A program made the translations under genes and the position numbers. Source: a virus (lineage: Duplodnaviria; Caudoviricetes). From it: DNA of 64,000 bases. The stretch covers positions 1 to 64,000 of IMG/VR virus record IMGVR_UViG_3300037418_001301; one strand, written 5' to 3'. Below, one piece after another: positions 4,312 through 43,935 of the stretch. The notes below the pieces were generated by a model. That model searched no databases, was not told the origin of the DNA, and worked only from the letters and a program-made list of their open reading frames with translations. The first letter of the stretch is position 1. Each line of letters starts with the position of its first letter.

Positions 4312-7006
4312 TCAGACATCCTGCTCAGATGGGAGGAGAGAGCGGAGCCGGAAGCACATGAAACGCTTCTGCTGCATCTCCTGGACTTGGCTGTCGGAAA
4401 TCGGCAGCATCGACTTGAAAAGCAGGTGGCGCTGCGCGTCGGTGTAGAGATTAAGGGCTGAGGCGAAATCGCCACGCTTGACGAAGCTGTCAGCCAGCAA
4501 CAGTATTTGCGCGTAATTCATGGCTACTGAACCTCATTTGCGATGTTGTAATTGTGACCGTTCTGCACCCCGCGCTCGGCAATCATGGCGCCAATGATGG
4601 CGAGGGTTCCGATCAGGCAGCCGATCTGTACGGCTTCGATGATGGCGTACCGGCGGTCAGCGAGGAGTTGGAGGAACTCTGGAAGATCACGCATCAGCGT
4701 CAACCTCCCACTCGCGATCAATCACGACTTCGTAGAATGGCTCATCCTCGTATTGCTCAAGGAGCGCGTCATAGTCGTCTTGAGACGCATCCCAGAGTTT
4801 TTGGACGACATCGCCTTCCACGTTATTCCACACGCTGATTTCGTATCGAGGTTCAGCCATTGGAGCCTCCCTGCATCGGAAGACGCTCAATGGATTCGAC
4901 ATTGACGTCCAACTCGCGGCCATCAATGCCCATATCCTTGATCTCGCCGTAGCCTTCGGTGAAGCAGTCGAGGAGCCCGCGAGCCTGCAGTTGAGCCAAA
5001 TGCTCGACGTGATCGTTGATGTCGTAGAACGGGTAGAAACTCTGTCGAAATTCGGCCATGAAGGCTTCATCGAACTTCGTCTCGTCCAGTTCTATTTCCA
5101 CGTCGATAATGACGGAGGCTTTGAATTTAGCCATTGCCTCCTCCATTGCCAAGCGCGGCGCGGGCGACATCGCCGCAGTCGCATATGGCGCTACCTTCCT
5201 GCTTTGCGACAGGGATGCAATTCTGAGTGAAGCATTCAGGGTCGCCATCCCATGAGGGGCTATTGATATAATTGGCCGGATCGGCGTAGAATTTCAGCGC
5301 CGCCTCCATATCTGCACGCGAGGCGACTGGCGACGATGGGCCGCTCAACAGAGCGACCTCAGCTTCGGATATTGCTTCTGAGAAATCGTACTCGTCGTAG
5401 ACGTTCGGTAAGGCGCTCGCAATTTTCATTGCCACATGAGCGCTGCGCAATGCTGCCATCAGTCGCTCGTTCTCCGCCTCCAGTTCTTCTACACGAGCCT
5501 GGAGAGCGGAGTAGGAGTTGACGGCGGTGACGATTGCTTGCGCACGCTCCGGCCTGCATATGCCAGACATCTCGAAATACTCGTTGCAGTCCGCATTGAA
5601 GGAGTTCTTCCAGCCGGACACCGTGAGATAGACGTGATGATGCTCGTCTTCGTCGCGGTCGCCGATGCGGAGTTCGTATTTATCAGGCGCGGTCATTGGC
5701 TGGCTCCTCGGAAAGGGCGGATGGGTTCACTGCGCCTAGAACGCGCTGTAGCGCCGCGATAATCGCCTCTGCTTCATGGTGAGGTTCTGGGCCGCGCAAT
5801 AGCGTTGCTTCCTCGCTTTCTAGGGAGGCAATCGGGCCGAACATCTCACCGATGGCATCTCGCACCATGCGGAGGGCAGCGGCGTAAGGGGCAACAGCAT
5901 CCGCGAAGAAGTTCGCTGGCTCCTCGGAAAGGATAGCCGCAACCCTCGCAGCAGCCCTGTACTGGCGCGTGACGCGATCCGGCGTGTTTTGGCAGGGGCA
6001 GTAATCATCCACCCCACGGCAAGCGCAGCGGTCGGCTTGGGCCTTCTGTTCGGCGACGGTGAGGAGAGGTTCAGTTCGCATCGCGCTCGTCCTCCCACCT
6101 GACATCGCGGTCATAGTCGGCGTCATAGCTGTCATCGAAGTCGTGATTTTCGGCAATCCAGCCGCACCATTTCCGGTCCTCTGCATCCGTCCACTTGATG
6201 TCGCTGCCAGCCTCATCCTTGACGCTGACGATCTCGACTTCACCGCCTTCGGGCGGATAACAATTTTCAGGCGGCCCGCTGGAGACGCCGGGATCGTATG
6301 GGCTGATCGTGTATTCGACGGTGACTTCCGTTTCGTCGTCGCGCTCAAATGAGGTGAAATGTGTTCTTGGCATCGCCTCAACTCCACATGTGTTCGCAAA
6401 TGCGATTGTTCGGATAGAAAAGCCGAGCGGAGACACGTTCGGCGTCAAGCTTGCGGGCGAAGCGAATGGCGTCCATATGATCCTGCGACCACATGTCGTC
6501 AGGACCGGCCCAATATGTTGGCGCGTCCGGGTTAGAGTCTCCGCGCTCGATGAGCCACGCGGTTTCCTGATTATGCATTTGCCACCTCGCTTTCGCGCTG
6601 AGCGCAGAACTTGTTGACACGACCGATCTGCCCGAGCGCCGCGGTAAGTTGTCGCTGGACATCCTCGACGGTGGCGCCAGCTGCAAACTGGCTGCCCATC
6701 CAATCTCCGAGCGAGGGAAGGACGTTGACCCGTACCGCAGCGGCCAGCATCAGTTTTGGATCAGTCGAGATGTAGAGCTTACGCATCGTCGCGGTCCTCG
6801 ATCTTGCGGCACATAGCGAGCGCCAGCGTTTCTAATCTCACCTGTGCGCTGTCGAGCATTATGGGACGGTCGTCGAGAGTTGCAGCCTTCGCTTCTATCA
6901 GGCGCCTGTGGAGCCTGGCCGCGGCGTCGATGGCCTGTTCAAGTTGAAACTGTGTCATGGCTGGCCTCCCTGGCGGCAGCAAATGCACTGAAGATTGCCT
7001 TGTCAT
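4312..7006 (-). other. Cluster of small coupled hypothetical early ORFs (e.g. 4312-4521, 5127-5696, 5683-6081, 6071-6373, 6378-6578, 6571-6786, 6779-7006)
   Basis: Consecutive minus-strand ORFs, many overlapping or nearly abutting and several with SD sequences; no recognisable domains. Confidence 0.55.
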
Positions 7007-27312: not shown

Positions 27313-27546
27313 CATCCTTCCTTCAAAAGCAAAAAGAAAAAACCGAGGCAGAGGAATGGGACTTCGGTGGTTTCCAGAGGCTAAGGCGCGGTTCGAAGGA
27401 CAACGTCCTTCGGCGGGGTTTGGGGCGGCAGCCCCTCCTTAATTGAGATAGAGAAGGGAAATGCTGAAATACTGTTGGGTTCTACCACACGCGGCTATGG
27501 CATTGATGTTCTGTGTGATATCGATAATATCTCCAGAGATAACGAG

Positions 27547-28008
27547 ATGCCGTACATGCCACGTAGACAAATTAGTCAGATCGACGCAAGGACTGGTGAA
27601 GTGTTGGATGGCGGCTTTGTCGCCTATGTAACTCCAAAGAGGTGCAACGGATTTGGGAGAGGTTGGATGGCATTGAGTCAGGAAGCATCTAGGATGCTGT
27701 CGCAACGCCGCAAGGAAATTGGCTTTGAGGCCTTTGCAGTCATGCACTTCTTGATAAGCACGGCTGAGTTCAATGGCCAGTTCAAGACGGTTAATCAGAC
27801 ACAGATTGCCAAGGAACTGGACATGCAAAAGAGCAACGTCTCGCGCGCAATCAAGCGGCTCTTAAACTTTGGTGTGCTTGTAGAAGGTCCACGAGAAGGA
27901 TTGAACAAGGCATACGCAATATCGCCAGAGATAGCATGGAAGGGCGAAGCCAAAGAGCACATCATCGCCCTGCATGATTATCGCCGTTCACGAGAGGTGC
28001 CAGCATGA
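27547..28008 (+). CDS. RepL-like plasmid replication/maintenance HTH protein
   Basis: QIDARTGEVL..GFVAYV.PKR.NGFG.GW, NQTQIAKELDMQKSNVSRAIKRL, Y.ISPEIAWKG. Confidence 0.7.
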   Translation: MPYMPRRQISQIDARTGEVLDGGFVAYVTPKRCNGFGRGWMALSQEASRMLSQRRKEIGFEAFAVMHFLISTAEFNGQFKTVNQTQIAKELDMQKSNVSRAIKRLLNFGVLVEGPREGLNKAYAISPEIAWKGEAKEHIIALHDYRRSREVPA

Positions 28009-28742
28009 CGTTCGAAGACATCCAAGCGCTATTCATCGCCGCCGCTGGCACGGATCGCAAACTCCCTGATACGGCGCGGCCAACACCACTAAGGGCGCAA
28101 GCATTGCCCTACTTCCACCTCGACGTGGAGAAGGCTGGCTGGATTCCCGCCGACTACATCAACGGGGAACCAATACCAGGCAAGACGATTAGGGAGCGGA
28201 TCGCCATCAAGAGAGCCGTCAAGGATCAACTGGAGATCGGAGATCGAGGGCGGCTTGACGAGGAGGCGGATCGGTTCTGGGCCGGCGGCAGAGTAGCGCC
28301 ACACGATGTTACGGAGTGGGAGCGCTGCAACGAACTTATCGTTCATGTCGAGGATACCAGCGAGCGCCGCTGTCTCTGGCATTGGGCGATCGCTAAATCA
28401 GGCGGGAGGCCATTCAATCATTGGTGCTTCGAGGATGAAGATATCCACCCTGAAACAGGGCGCCGACGCAAGAATAATGCAATCCGCAGCATCGTTTTGG
28501 CACAATCCTGCGTAAAGACGGCTTTTAAGCACGAAATCGACGTATCAACTCTGTTGCATCAACCCACCGAAATCATGCATATTGAGGCTAAGATTGCACA
28601 AGGCGTCACAGCATGGATGGCCGATAACAATCGCCCTCTCATCTGCGATTTCGACACCGGCCTGAAGAACTATCAGTGGGCCGAACGTCAGAATGAACTC
28701 CGCCGGCAACGCGAACGGAAACGCAAGCAAGAGGCGGCATAA
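28005..28742 (+). CDS. Putative late-gene regulator (hypothetical)
   Basis: Positioned at the end of the middle operon before the late genes; N-terminus F..AA.T.RKLP. Confidence 0.5.
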   Translation: MTFEDIQALFIAAAGTDRKLPDTARPTPLRAQALPYFHLDVEKAGWIPADYINGEPIPGKTIRERIAIKRAVKDQLEIGDRGRLDEEADRFWAGGRVAPHDVTEWERCNELIVHVEDTSERRCLWHWAIAKSGGRPFNHWCFEDEDIHPETGRRRKNNAIRSIVLAQSCVKTAFKHEIDVSTLLHQPTEIMHIEAKIAQGVTAWMADNNRPLICDFDTGLKNYQWAERQNELRRQRERKRKQEAA

Positions 28743-28748
28743 GATACA

Positions 28749-29057
28749 ATGACGTGCTGTCCGCGAAGCTCCAGCAGCCTGAGGGCCACAACGGACTTTC
28801 TTTACTGGTCCGAGCGCGACGAAATCCGCAAGGCGGTATTCGATCGCGATCCGCCGATCTGTGTTTGGTGTCATGCCCGGCTAGGCGATCACAGATCGGC
28901 GCGGTACTACCACATGGATCATATTGAGCCGCGATCCATCGGTGGCGCATATGATGAGGATAACCTCGTCATGTCCTGCAAGGACTGCAACACCGCTCGT
29001 GGGTCAATGTCTTTGCTGCAGTTCATGGCTAGCAGGTCGGCTCAGCAGGCAGCATAA
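28749..29057 (+). CDS. Small HNH endonuclease
   Basis: VFDRD..ICVWC...MDHIEPRSIGG...NLVMSCKDCN..RG. Confidence 0.88.
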   Translation: MTCCPRSSSSLRATTDFLYWSERDEIRKAVFDRDPPICVWCHARLGDHRSARYYHMDHIEPRSIGGAYDEDNLVMSCKDCNTARGSMSLLQFMASRSAQQAA

Positions 29058-29064
29058 TTCGCCC

Positions 29065-29405
29065 GACAGGGCAACAAGAGTGCGGTTTCGACCAGACCAC
29101 TTCCGGACATGCAAAGTAGCGTCTGCAGCGCGAAATGCAGGACCAAAAAGACAAGGCGACTGCCGGGAAAGTACGGCACAGTTTCGCGGGCAGATCGCAA
29201 GATCACCGAAAGGCCGGGTGACCGGTGCCCGCAACGAGAGCGGTCTGGATAAGTAGGGCACACTGCGGTTTATCCAGCGGGAGGCATCCCGGCCCACCAT
29301 GCACGATGCGGCGGGGCAATGCCCTGTCTAGGTCACGACGCTGCAAGTTCCCTGACCTTAGCCTTAGCGGGCCGAAGTTGGAATCATAGGTACCAGCGCC
29401 GCATC
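29065..29405 (+). ncRNA. Candidate large structured non-coding RNA (family not recognised)
   Basis: 9-bp closing stem 29065-73/29320-28; four GNRA-capped hairpins and one UUCG-capped hairpin; perfect four-way junction 29186-29232. Confidence 0.7.
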
Positions 29406-29428
29406 ACGTCTTCACATGGAGAAGAGCG

Positions 29429-31119
29429 ATGGACAACCGTCAGCAAGCCGCCTACACAAAGCAAACGTCTCCGTATCCTGGCTACATCAACGTGACCCGC
29501 GAGGGTGACAACGTCACCATCAGCCTGCGCGGCGATGCTCGTGACAATGGCGAATGCGGCCCGCTCTCCACGTTGAAGCTGACTTGGAACGAGTGGCTCA
29601 TGTTCATGGACGACATTAAGTACAGGCTATGACCGCCGCCGCCTTCCCCCACACCCGCCGTGCCCGGCTGATCTACTACCTGCGCAGCGGACTATCCTTC
29701 ATGCTGCTGTCGTGGGCCATGTCAGTCGCCCCGGAGCGTGAGCGGTTCTCACTCGCTATGTCCGCAAGGGATCATGCCTACAGGACAATGGGGATGGATG
29801 TGAAATGAAGGGCAACCCAGATAGCGGCGACGAAGAGGAGTTCAGCATTGGGCAAGCTCTCCTATGCATTCCGCTCGGCATCGCCATCGCTGGCCTATTT
29901 ATCCTTTTCGCATCATTCGCTCATGCCGCGGTGCATCCCGACACGGAAATGCCATCTGTAAGGCCAGAGACGGCCAAGGACGCTCAACAGCCAAAGCCTC
30001 GATGTGTGAGGCTTCGCACTGCGATCGTCACTGTACGCCTCGCTAATGGTGCAGTGCTGATAGCCCCTATGACTATTGCGGTGCCGTGCTGATGCCAAAA
30101 CTCAGGGATTGGGAGAGAGATGGTATGCTTCGCGATTATGCAAAGGGTGTCCCACTGAGCGAGATCGCCGCGCGATACGAGGTGAGCAAATCTGCCCCGA
30201 TCATGCTGGCAAAGAGCTATGGTGTCATCCGCGGCTCGTATGTTGATCCAGCGAAGATGAAGACGCCGGTCCCTGAATGTCCCGTTGCCGAAGTCCGCAG
30301 ACTCGCCGCCAAGGGGCTATCCATCACCAGGATAGGTGCCCTGCTTCGGTGCCGCTATGCCGATGTGGCGAGAGTGCTGGCGTCGTGAATATGGCGGGAT
30401 GGTTTGGGCCCTGGTTTTTTGGGAGGCCTAAACCAAAACCTCAAGAGACAGATTGAAAGGATATCGACATGGCCAAGAAAACCAAGCCGAAGCCGATGAA
30501 GCCGCGGCCGGGGTACTGAGATGATCGGCCGGCGCAAATTCCTCGCGACGACGGCGGTGATCGCGCCCAACTGTTCTTCTTCGCCGACCGGTACGATATC
30601 AAGGTGGCGACGGTGCATTAGGCGAATTCAACCAATCACTTATGGGAGTGAGAAATGGACGCTGATAAGCGCGCGTTTCTGAGGGGTATTATGGCGACCG
30701 CTGCGGTGGCTGCAACCACTCTTCCCGCCATTGCTGACACTGTGCCAACAATCTATGGCGACGGTCGTCGCGACGATACTGCTGGGCTGCAAGCACTACT
30801 AGATGGCAAGCCGTTTCGAATTGACGGAGAGGTTGTCACGGCCGCCGCCGATTGCATCATCTACGGTGATTTTCGCATCAGCGATACGCTGGAAATGGGC
30901 CGATCCAAAAGCAGCCTGCGTTATAAAAGCTTCGAATGGATAGGCAAGCAGACAAAGCCCAAGTCCAAGTCGGTTTACCCTCATAAATCAGTCACTGTGG
31001 GTCATTTCTACCACCCGTTGGCTGTTAAGGCCATGGCAATTACGCAATCTAATCAGCTATTTGAAGCGTTACGCGAGATGCGTTACGCGATACCTAGAGA
31101 ACAAAACCCAAATCCATGA
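29429..31119 (+). other. Small ORFs at the start of the late region (29429-29632, 29805-30092, about 30092-30388, 30655-31119)
   Basis: ORFs on the late strand; the one ending at 30388 is HTH-like; 30655 has a KRAFL signal and a GDG..DDTA.LQ motif. Confidence 0.5.
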
Positions 31120-34402: not shown

Positions 34403-36112
34403 ATGCTGTCCCGTTACAAAGGAGATCGCTACAGGGCCGCTGCAAACCCTGAACTGGTAGCATTTGTCGAATCCGACGAACTGCACTCACTCGACTACGA
34501 CAGCGCCTGTGATTTCTACGCTATGGTCGCAGAGACGGCCACTGAAGCGGATCTGGCTTATCTGGGATGCGTGGATAGGTATTTCCTATTCACCGCGATC
34601 CTGGGCCGCCATGACGGGTTTCATCCGTGGCTCTATGATCGCTGCAGGGAGGTGGAGTTAGAGCCGGATGGATTCCTTGACCTATGGTCGCGTGACCACC
34701 GTAAAAGCTCGTTGATCACGTTCTCTGGCTGCATTCAGGAAATCCTTAGCGATCCTGACATAACCATTGGCATCTTCTCGCACACGCAAAAGATTGCCAA
34801 GGAGTTTGTGAAATGGATCAGGCGAGAGTTCGAGGCGAACAGCAAACTGCGGCGTCTTTACCCGGATGTGTGCTGGCTCAAGCCTGCAAGCGAAGCTCCG
34901 GTTTGGACTGAGAACGCTTTTACGGTTCGTCGCCGTGGAAATCCGAAAGAGGCAACCTTGGAAGGATGGGGACTTGTCGATGGCCAGCCCACTGGCAAGC
35001 ACTTCCGCCTCATGGTCTATGACGATGTCGTGACCAAGGACAACGTGACGAATGCGGACCAGATCAAGAAGACGACGGAGTCGTGGGAACTCTCGGATAA
35101 TCTCGGCGCCGACGATGCCCGCAAGTGGCACATTGGTACAAGATATTCTTTCGCGGACTCCTACGCTGAGATCATCAATAAAGGCGTTGTGACGGTTCGG
35201 AAATACCCGGCCACGGACAACGGCAGGATTGATGGTAAGCCCGTCTTCCTTGATCCTGAGGTGTGGGAGAAGAAGAAGAAGGCCCAGACATCCACCCTCG
35301 CCGCACAGATGCTCCAGAACCCGCTATCTGGCAAAGAGCGGACCTTCGAGCCAACATGGTTCAAGCGCTGGGAAGTCCGGCCGGCGGCGGTAAACGTCTA
35401 CATTATGGCCGATCCATCGCGGGGCAGGACAGCAACATCAGACCGGACAGCAATGCCAGTCCTCGCCATCGATACCAAGGGCAAGAAATATCTGGTCGAC
35501 GGCTTCTGTCACAGGATGACGCTCTCCCAGCGGTGGGATAACCTGAAGCACTTGCATAAGAAGTGGGCCGCGATGCCCGGAGTTGGCATTCTGAAAGTGG
35601 GATACGAGCGCTTCGGGCAGCAATCCGATGATGAGTACTTCACCGAGCGGATGCGCAACGACAACTATTTCTTCAACATCGAGGAACTGGCGTGGCCTCG
35701 CGAAGGCGGGGCGTCGAAAGAGCACCGCGTCGAGCGGCTGCAGCCTGACGTCCAGTTCGGAACGTTCTATTTCCCCGCATTTGTCCATGTACAGGGGCAA
35801 GGCGACTGCCAATGGTCAGTGGACGAAGATCAGCAGATCATGCGCTATGAGCCGCTACGGGGCGAAACAGCGATCGTCAGACGCATGAAGGAACGAGGGC
35901 AGGGGTATCTTGCCGCCGCTCCTATCAAACGGAAGAACGAAGCTGGCGAGATATACGATCTCACCCGTGAGCTTATCGATGAAATGATGTTCTTCCCGTT
36001 CGCGCAGCATGACGACCTAGTCGATGCCGTGAGCCGGATTTACGACATGGAGCCGATGGCGGCTGCTGTGATCGAGGTGTTGCCAGAGGAAAAGATACCT
36101 GAAGATGCGTGA
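34403..36112 (+). CDS. terL: Terminase large subunit
   Basis: SRDHRKSS (Walker A-like), LMVYDDVV (Walker B), MADPS, VGYE, HDDLVDAVS. Confidence 0.9.
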   Translation: MLSRYKGDRYRAAANPELVAFVESDELHSLDYDSACDFYAMVAETATEADLAYLGCVDRYFLFTAILGRHDGFHPWLYDRCREVELEPDGFLDLWSRDHRKSSLITFSGCIQEILSDPDITIGIFSHTQKIAKEFVKWIRREFEANSKLRRLYPDVCWLKPASEAPVWTENAFTVRRRGNPKEATLEGWGLVDGQPTGKHFRLMVYDDVVTKDNVTNADQIKKTTESWELSDNLGADDARKWHIGTRYSFADSYAEIINKGVVTVRKYPATDNGRIDGKPVFLDPEVWEKKKKAQTSTLAAQMLQNPLSGKERTFEPTWFKRWEVRPAAVNVYIMADPSRGRTATSDRTAMPVLAIDTKGKKYLVDGFCHRMTLSQRWDNLKHLHKKWAAMPGVGILKVGYERFGQQSDDEYFTERMRNDNYFFNIEELAWPREGGASKEHRVERLQPDVQFGTFYFPAFVHVQGQGDCQWSVDEDQQIMRYEPLRGETAIVRRMKERGQGYLAAAPIKRKNEAGEIYDLTRELIDEMMFFPFAQHDDLVDAVSRIYDMEPMAAAVIEVLPEEKIPEDA

Positions 36113-41979: not shown

Positions 41980-42958
41980 TATAGATTAGCCGCTTGATTT
42001 GGATTGGTAGTACCTTCGAAAGGTAACCGCCTTCGTGCCATATGTATCTGTGGCGCGATGGCACTTTATGCAAAGCGTTCTCAGATTGCTCGGATTCATC
42101 CCCAAAGATGGCTCCGAGGAAGTTGGGAGAATATGATCAACGTGCAGAATTATGCGAGACCCACGCCCTTCGTGGTTACGGTCCCCGCATAGTTGGCAGG
42201 TGTAGTTATCGCGTTTTAGAATTTCGAGGCGCAGCTGGCGATATTCGCTGGTGTCTCGGAACCCTCTGACGCCGCCACACCAATTGCCGTGATCCTTTCC
42301 AGTCGGGAAATCCCTAGAATACTCCTTCTTGGTTTTTCCTCTATTCCAAGCTACCTGACCTTTCTTTGACCGAAGCCATTTGGTTCGAAGAACTGGGTCA
42401 GAGGCAAGCCTCTCATTGACGTGTGACCAGTCGCAATAGGCTTCATGGCCTTTGCGAAATCCCATGCGTTCAAGCGATGGATGGTCTCCTTTCTTCATCC
42501 CTCTGTTCCAGCCCGCAACGGTTTGGGTCTTTCGGGTTTTGGGATGGTGACCAACCTTATATTCGCCAATGATCAGGCCGCCGCCTTCAGACCTTGGACG
42601 ATACACTGGGAATGGATAGAACGTTTCACCGCATCCGCATTTGCAGATAACAGCGGTTCGTTCTCTTTGCGCTTTGCTTACGCCCAAGTTAGTTCCTTTC
42701 GATGAGTAAATTCCGAATCTAGAAAACGGGGTGAATTGCTGGAAAGCCCAACCGCTGAGAGGCGAGGGTAATCAGCAGCCAAGCCGCATATGTAAGCCGA
42801 AAGGCCTAGGGATGCGGAAGGTTCAACGACTAGGCTTTGACGAAAGAATAAGAAGCCCACGAGCGCCCTGCGCCACACCATTGGCGATGATATAGTCTGA
42901 GCTACCGCGAAATCGGTAGAAGCGAGAGTTTAAACTACACTCGCGATAACACAAACTG
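41980..42958 (+). mobile_element. Group I intron 1 in the capsid gene, with HNH ORF
   Basis: Exon ends in U and intron ends in G. P1 CGGUUA/UAGCCG with a U-G pair. P AATTGCTGGAAA 42734, Q AATCAGCAGCC 42770, R GTTCAACGACTA 42821, S GATATAGTC 42889. Confidence 0.93.
41986..42687 (-). CDS. Intron-encoded HNH endonuclease, antisense to the intron
   Basis: RDNYTCQLCG...LHVDHI...NLRTLCIKCH; WNRG repeats; TTG start with AAAGGA SD. Confidence 0.9.
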   Translation of the reverse strand: MGVSKAQRERTAVICKCGCGETFYPFPVYRPRSEGGGLIIGEYKVGHHPKTRKTQTVAGWNRGMKKGDHPSLERMGFRKGHEAYCDWSHVNERLASDPVLRTKWLRSKKGQVAWNRGKTKKEYSRDFPTGKDHGNWCGGVRGFRDTSEYRQLRLEILKRDNYTCQLCGDRNHEGRGSRIILHVDHILPTSSEPSLGMNPSNLRTLCIKCHRATDTYGTKAVTFRRYYQSKSSG

Positions 42959-43616
42959 AATTCTGTACCGTACACCGGACTCCTCGAGAACCTCGGGGAA
43001 ATCGATGTCAAGGACATCATCGACCAGACCCTCCGCGACGACGCACGTCAAACGCTGGATCGTCTCGTCGGTTACCAGATGTTCCAGACGCCGCTTCGTG
43101 TGGCGCCGACATCCGGCACATCGACAACCGCTGTCACGTTGACCACCAACAGCGCGACCGCAACCACCAACAACGTCGAACTCGGCACTGGCCACATCAA
43201 GGCCATTTCCGATATCATGAAAGATCGTAACGTGCCCGCGTATGATGGGGACGACTACGTTGCGGTCACTCATGCCACGACGATGCGCACTTTCAAGAAC
43301 AGCCTGGAGACCATTCACCAGTACAGCGAGACTGGTATCCAGCTGATCTTCAAGGGCGAAGTAGGCCGCTACGAATCGATCCGCTGGATCGAGCAGAACG
43401 AAATCCCGAAGGGTCACGCCAATGACGCGGCGTTCAACCTGACCTCCGGTTCCGCCAACTACGTCTATGACGCCGTTGCCGACGACTGGAACAACGGGAA
43501 GTCCTCTTGGGCTCTGTTCATGGGCTCGGACACCGTTCTGGAAGCGCCGGCCATCCCTGAGGAAATCCGCGCAAAGTTGCCCGGCGACTACGGTCGCGAC
43601 AAGGGCATCGCTTGGT
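42959..43616 (+). CDS. Major capsid protein, exon 2
   Basis: NSVPYTGLLE...GEVGRYESIRWIEQ...DYGRDKGIAW; in frame with the listed 43079 ORF. Confidence 0.9.
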
Positions 43617-43935
43617 TGAACTGAAGAGGTATAGCCAAGCCTAAACTCCGTGAACTGACTGGAAACCCCTGAGAGCACAGAACGCCACAGCGTAGCTTGG
43701 AAAGGCAAGCGCGATGGCTTGAAAAGTTCTGTGATTGGGCAATCAGCAGCCAAGCCCCGAGAACCGGGGAAGGTTCAACGACTAACATGTAGGGCCAAGC
43801 GGCCCGAAGTGCGGAGCGCCCCTTACCCAAGGGGACGAAGATATAGTCTCGTCCCATAGGAAACTATGGGCAGCAATTGCCAGATGCGTTTGGCAAGAGC
43901 GGCACGGTTTTAGCGAAACCGTGTGAAGATTTCCG
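43617..43935 (+). ncRNA. Group I intron 2 in the capsid gene (ORF-less, 319 nt)
   Basis: P1 GCUUGGU/GCCAAGC; P10 GAGGUA (43626)/UACCUC (43938); Q 43741, R 43763, S AAGATATAGTC 43838; terminal G. Confidence 0.93.

Follow-up and report, generated by a model that had tools for sequence, protein, structure and literature searches.

A conserved 59-nt four-way junction, probably a small RNA signal, in a variable tRNA and endonuclease locus of uncultured rhizosphere phages

Does a 371-nt gap between two small phage genes encode one large structured RNA, as a preliminary description made from the sequence had proposed, or is only a part of it an RNA element? The gap lies in the first 64 kb of a 75,326-bp IMG/VR phage record (this 64-kb stretch, the whole of the DNA analyzed, is called the window), in which all genes from ~15 kb on are on the plus strand and for which the nearest protein matches in cultured phages are 22–36% identical. 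Upstream of the gap, all on the plus strand, are an O-like winged-helix replication gene (27475–28008), a 245-aa gene of PHROG 37864 (28005–28742), and a gene for a free-standing HNH endonuclease of 102 aa (28749–29057; Pfam HNH, E 6.8e-12; PHROG HNH families). On the same strand downstream is an accessory 67-aa ORF (ORF67; 29429–29632) with the ribosome-binding site GGAG, which had no match in Pfam and PHROG searches; its 76% identical homolog in L005 is not preceded by this spacer. Then follows, at 29629 (+ strand), the conserved ORF that closes the variable locus in relatives; small ORFs lie between the gap and the terminase gene, which starts at 34403 (+ strand). The phage record has no tRNA genes detectable by ARAGORN, none of the ORFs that overlap the gap (98 aa on the minus strand; 110, 54, and 58 aa on the plus strand) belongs to a Pfam family, and the gap sequence is not repeated elsewhere within the 64-kb window.

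The pairings from which a large RNA was proposed are present, each with its complementary segment on the plus strand: a closing helix (29065–29073/29320–29328), a UUCG-type hairpin (29084–29093), a TGCCG/CGGCA helix (29161–29165/29174–29178), a stem that closes a four-way junction by enclosing three hairpins (29186–29192/29226–29232), a helix and a hairpin in the 3′ flank (29245–29252/29270–29277 and 29278–29291), an AGGTCA/TGACCT helix (29330–29335/29354–29359), and a long-range pair (29305–29313/29397–29405) that had been put forward as a pseudoknot or switch. The start of these pairings was also correctly placed 7 nt past the small HNH gene, with the HNH stop at 29057 and the first helix at 29065. 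Rfam scans of the gap and of the corresponding loci in relatives, at gathering thresholds and at E ≤ 10, returned only tRNAs and two group I introns; the gap itself matches no family, in agreement with the earlier view that it is not a group I or group II intron, RNase P RNA, or tRNA. For the group I model (RF00028), there is no match in 28900–29600 even at E ≤ 10; the same scan recovers introns at 42680–42919 and 43588–43870 of the window (65.8 and 76.2 bits).

Related phages divide the gap into three parts, all on the plus strand: a 5′ flank (29058–29178), which is an unconserved spacer with UUCG-type and other hairpins; a conserved core (29179–29237), consisting of a leader and the four-way junction; and a 3′ flank (29238–29428), an unconserved spacer with several hairpins. 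The core is 91–95% identical in six related IMG/VR contigs (L002/L003, L007, L010, L024, and L028). In L002/L003 the flanking genes are 83–99% identical to those of the window, and the gap DNA between the 245-aa gene and the ORF at 29629 is different apart from a 56-nt match to the core (29179–29234, 91%), the sole segment of the gap shared with relatives. The gene order in L002/L003 is tRNA-Asn, tRNA-Met, tRNA-Thr, the core match, ~245 nt of unrelated DNA, an HNH_3-type endonuclease gene, a terminator, and another ORF. In L010 and L024, the array that precedes the core comprises tRNA-Gln, -Pro, and -Cys, one weak tRNA, and tRNA-Thr. Wherever tRNA-Thr is present (L002, L010, and L024), it is the last gene of the tRNA operon and the closing stem of the core begins 5 nt past its CCA end; the orientation of the core is always that of transcription. 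In L007, 140 nt of other DNA separate the core from an ORF, without an adjacent tRNA, and in L028 the tRNA-Thr before the core is broken by an inserted HNH ORF of a third kind. This insertion (L028 1648–2123) is a 146-aa HNH-like ORF that splits tRNA-Thr at the anticodon region, with the 5′ end partly deleted and the 3′ half and the core remaining. Reading frames through the core were considered as genes and judged not to be coding, because in relatives the same frames run into tRNAs.

Several features of these tRNA regions were recorded in passing. A tRNA with the anticodon CUA, of amber-suppressor type, is located upstream of the core locus in L007 (9596–9671; called tRNA-Pyl by ARAGORN; RF00005, 42.6 bits). 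Between tRNA-Cys and tRNA-Thr, L010 (12426–12497, minus strand) and L028 (1594–1665) have a low-scoring tRNA (RF00005, 34.2 bits; no ARAGORN call), which may be degenerate or unusual. The tRNA-Thr of L002 (4903–4978) has two U·U mismatches in the acceptor stem by eye and still obtains a tRNA score of 61 bits. Visual inspection of L007 and L010 revealed a TTGACG-17-TATGAC box before the tRNA unit, which failed a promoter scan. In L002, a promoter-like TTGAAA-17-TATCTT box was seen by eye just upstream of the HNH_3 endonuclease gene (5190–5220); this endonuclease cassette may bring its own promoter.

The core consists of a 7-nt leader (29179–29185) followed by the four-way junction (29186–29232), in which a closing stem of 6–7 bp joins three hairpins with arms of 2–4 bp and the loops GCAA, GAAA, and GUGA; the 3′ tail is AAC or AAG. 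All three loops are of the GNRA type, and on the transcribed strand only. The four-way junction folds with z −2.94, and 2 of 200 shuffles fold equally well. The junction recognized in the preliminary description is present, and it is the sole part of the gap that is structured as well as conserved. The covariance model built from the core (R1) matched only these copies (E ~1e-23). In the alignment of the core, which comprises five distinct sequences with a mean column identity of 97%, 96.5% of the cells in paired positions are paired. The closing stem has 7 bp in the window, and 6 bp plus an A·C pair in all relatives; columns 27–48 form A-U in the window and G-C in all other copies; one pair becomes G-U in L007; and hairpin 3 of L002, after three substitutions, again forms 4 bp, with its register shifted. 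L010/L024 and L028 have one uncompensated helix mismatch each. A test for covariation among homologs, which had been named as a check on the proposed RNA, found one covarying pair, but 92 of 500 shuffles reach this value and it is not significant, because there are only five distinct sequences with 97% mean identity.

Conservation of the core exceeds that of its surroundings: the L010 core has 3 mismatches in 56 positions versus 80–86% identity in the surviving flanking patches (binomial P 0.02), and between L002 and L010 the core is, by eye, better conserved than the adjacent tRNA-Thr. Part of this conservation could be due to shared ancestry, because the phages are close relatives. The cores of the relatives fold at z −0.6 to −1.8 only, and the minimum free energy (MFE) structure omits the four-way junction for L010, for L028, and for L002 when folded with five extra upstream bases; when the L002 core is folded with its 3′ flank, the four-way junction appears. 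We consider it rather better than an even chance that the core acts as RNA, and the core is probably a small RNA signal.

To the extent covered by exact-pattern scans, the core occurs only in a narrow set of uncultured phages from the rhizosphere. Among viral contigs, four patterns retrieved the same six contigs plus chance matches; two patterns gave zero matches among genome contigs, and the one hit of a pattern run against metagenome contigs lies in coding DNA and is a false positive. BLAST of the gap found no match among 50,697 phage records and only two chance matches of 26 nt among plasmid records. Neither the 5′ flank nor the 3′ flank has a match in the relatives, in the phage and plasmid collections, or upstream of the ORF67 homolog of L005.

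The status of the core in the population is apparent from contigs of four rhizosphere and soil metagenomes mapped on 28600–29800. Summed depth over the core is 40–200, like that of the backbone genes on either side (20–250), and that over the HNH gene and both flanks is 0–7. At least four kinds of neighbor occur on each side of the core in the metagenomes, including the tRNA-Thr end and an L007-type hairpin, with mosaic joints at both core edges. Because the depth of the core equals that of the backbone and its neighbors vary, the core is part of the backbone and everything around it is accessory. The locus, between the replication genes and a conserved block of small genes, varies more than any other in this phage group.

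Endonuclease genes are among the accessory material. The 102-aa HNH gene is missing in most relatives, being not at the locus in L002, L007, and L010; its closest homolog, with 73% identity, occupies the corresponding position in L029. The locus has been invaded by three different HNH genes in different phages, 0–250 nt from the core, and the L029 core, whose 5′ half adjoins the HNH gene directly, is scrambled over precisely that half, leaving a barely recognizable piece. Presence or absence of the gene, together with three endonuclease genes at one locus, conforms to the pattern of free-standing homing endonucleases. Directly after the HNH stop, L029 (3304–3420) has a hairpin that resembles the L007-type 3′-flank start, a GUAA-capped copy of hairpin 3, and an L002-type 3′ flank start; this patchwork suggests repeated recombination among spacer types.

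Our preferred reading, to which we give a probability of about 0.55, is that the gap is not one large RNA and instead contains a small RNA element linked to tRNA operons, situated in a homing-endonuclease hot spot. The core would be a compact four-way junction, each arm sealed by a GNRA loop, that is co-transcribed with the tRNAs and forms the terminal element of the phage tRNA operon transcript, marking the 3′ boundary of the array. Its role would probably be in processing or stability. With its tRNA-like shape, it could admit RNase P or RNase E to the transcript and so free the last tRNA; equally, it could resist nucleases and cap a downstream small RNA or mRNA at the 5′ end. Both could apply, with a cut by RNase P or RNase E and a block to exonucleases together setting where the downstream RNA begins. 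That RNase P would recognize the core is a guess, because the core has no T-loop, D-loop, or CCA. Since the core is kept without an adjacent tRNA in the window and in L007, a boundary role fits only if the core also serves a downstream RNA. In the window phage, the tRNAs would have been lost, with the HNH cassette and filler in their place and the core isolated between two GC-rich spacers that are unrelated and unconstrained and have chance-level hairpins. The 5′ flank has weak collinear similarity to the 3′ end of tRNA-Pro, the spacer, and tRNA-Cys of L010 (p ~0.014–0.03, before correction), and may be the remains of a decayed tRNA array; we regard this as a lead and not as a result.

A bolder form of this idea, which we consider unlikely, is that the core represents a new class of RNA, a triple-GNRA four-way junction that closes phage tRNA operons, either as tRNA-shaped punctuation or a nuclease block, or as a decoy or docking module with a host or phage partner for its three tetraloops, and to which downstream bodies that vary between phages are attached. 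If so, the 3′ flank of the window, and perhaps the 5′ flank, would be one such functional downstream body.

Alternatively, the core may have no function as RNA, and be a DNA site for homing endonucleases or module exchange, or a leftover of recent ancestry. The proximity of the three HNH genes, the scrambling of the L029 core at the HNH junction, the mosaic joints at both core edges, and the uncompensated mismatches in two variants speak for a DNA site or relic. However, the sense strand has GNRA in all three loops, each with a chance probability of ~1/32, one pair covaries, and one hairpin was rebuilt after three substitutions; further, the core always keeps 5 nt from the tRNA end where tRNA-Thr is present, the orientation always follows transcription, and the core is, by eye, better conserved than the neighboring tRNA-Thr. 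We therefore hold a DNA site or relic to be rather improbable, and favor the small RNA element.

The original proposal, that the whole 260–340 nt constitutes one large non-coding RNA or ribozyme, with the junction as its heart and the flanks as peripheral domains that differ between phages, is quite unlikely. Perfect inverted repeats are in excess across the gap, with nine arms of at least 7 nt versus 3.1 expected (1/500 shuffles) and two of at least 9 nt versus 0.19 expected (4/500 shuffles), an enrichment that is moderate, in the top 3.5–7% of equal-sized stretches of the same genome. The gap is also rich in tetraloops, long-range complements are nested around the core (29065/29320 and 29091/29243), and each relative too has a stem-rich stretch 3′ of the core. 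Against shuffles, however, the fold of the whole gap reaches z −1.57 on the plus strand and −0.97 on the minus strand, and its MFE structure leaves out the proposed closing helix. When the flanks alone were shuffled and the core was held fixed, z was −0.95; folded alone, the 5′ flank gave z +0.24 and the 3′ flank z −1.34; and the energy of the flank-to-flank duplex is close to the shuffle mean, matched by 138 of 300 shuffles. The flanks have no structure or mutual complementarity above chance. Relatives retain only 56–59 nt, with both flanks wholly replaced by unrelated DNA (by tRNAs in three cases), and in metagenomes the flanks occur as near-identical copies only; together with the absence of an Rfam match, these observations count against a single large RNA. 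GC-rich filler in such hot spots can seem helix-rich by eye without being structured RNA.

A cis-acting antitermination or regulatory function, in the manner of HK022 put, would have the core allow read-through of a following terminator. L007, L010, L024, and L028 share a near-identical stretch of ~105 nt 3′ of the core that ends in a 10-bp intrinsic terminator; such a terminator is located ~110 nt past the core, or past the inserted endonuclease gene in L002, and in all five phages it is strong, in the same direction as the core, and followed by conserved genes. Yet the window has the core without a terminator, as a scan of the 3′ flank for promoters and terminators detected neither, and the core is a four-way junction versus the two-stem layout of put-type elements; on this comparison, antitermination would be a very unlikely function.

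The earlier suggestion that the 102-aa HNH protein uses the RNA as guide or partner, in the style of HEARO or omega RNAs, draws on the position of the RNA 7 nt past the HNH stop codon and on L029, where an HNH gene is likewise followed by a structured gap, but it is exceedingly improbable and is rejected because core and HNH gene occur without each other: four relatives (L002, L007, L010, and L024) carry the core without this HNH gene, and the HNH homologs of L030–L036 (58–64% identity) are followed by DNA unrelated to the gap, while the protein consists of an HNH domain only and the Rfam HEARO model has no match in the gap.

The small RNA element favored here can be compared with several known systems. 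IscB-type proteins, the partners of HEARO/omega RNAs, have RuvC plus HNH and ~400–500 aa, unlike the 102-aa protein with HNH only. With tRNAs and tRNA-like processing signals, such as tRNA punctuation and the minihelix substrates of RNase P, the core may share a cloverleaf outline, given its closing stem of 6–7 bp (7 bp in the window only), its three short arms, and its place in the slot of the next tRNA; unlike a tRNA, it has no T-loop, D-loop, anticodon loop, or CCA, and ARAGORN called no tRNA gene in it and RF00005 did not match it at E ≤ 10. Among the endonucleases, T4 SegB is a free-standing homing endonuclease in a phage tRNA region (PMC2330249), with similar presence or absence in that region and replacement of flanking markers, to which the L028 insertion within a tRNA gene may be likened; SegB is a GIY-YIG enzyme, whereas those of the present locus are of HNH and HNH_3 type. 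The locus offers a clear natural case of the endonuclease-driven scrambling of a tRNA region.

Phage tRNA islands repeatedly hold RNAs other than tRNAs, such as T4 species 1 and 2, ROOL, and GOLLD. ROOL and GOLLD are phage-encoded structured RNAs that are often beside tRNA islands (PMC12286853), a neighborhood that the core shares, but they are 580–800 nt in size and have conserved complex folds and Rfam models (which had no match in the window or its relatives), whereas the conserved unit here is 59 nt. The closest parallel in layout is T4, in which tRNA-Gln through tRNA-Ile are followed by segB, tRNA-Arg, and, 1 nt further on, rnaD and rnaC. T4 species 1 (rnaC, 139 nt) and species 2 (rnaD, 119 nt) are stable RNAs of the tRNA cluster (PMC2330249); as the core would do in the relatives of the window phage, a small non-tRNA RNA directly follows the last tRNA of an array that also contains a homing endonuclease gene. 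This placement directly after the last tRNA holds for L002, L010, and L024 (5 nt), and not for the window phage, which has no tRNAs. The R1 model did not match rnaC or rnaD in the T4 tRNA region; rnaC has a tRNA-type T arm, unlike the core, which has GNRA loops only and is less than half the size, and for the T4 RNAs expression and processing are known. A minimal, sequence-invariant junction 5 nt past the last tRNA would provide a simple system for the punctuation and processing of tRNA operons. The core is new to Rfam, and would belong to a kind already known, the small structured RNAs that accompany tRNA clusters in phages.
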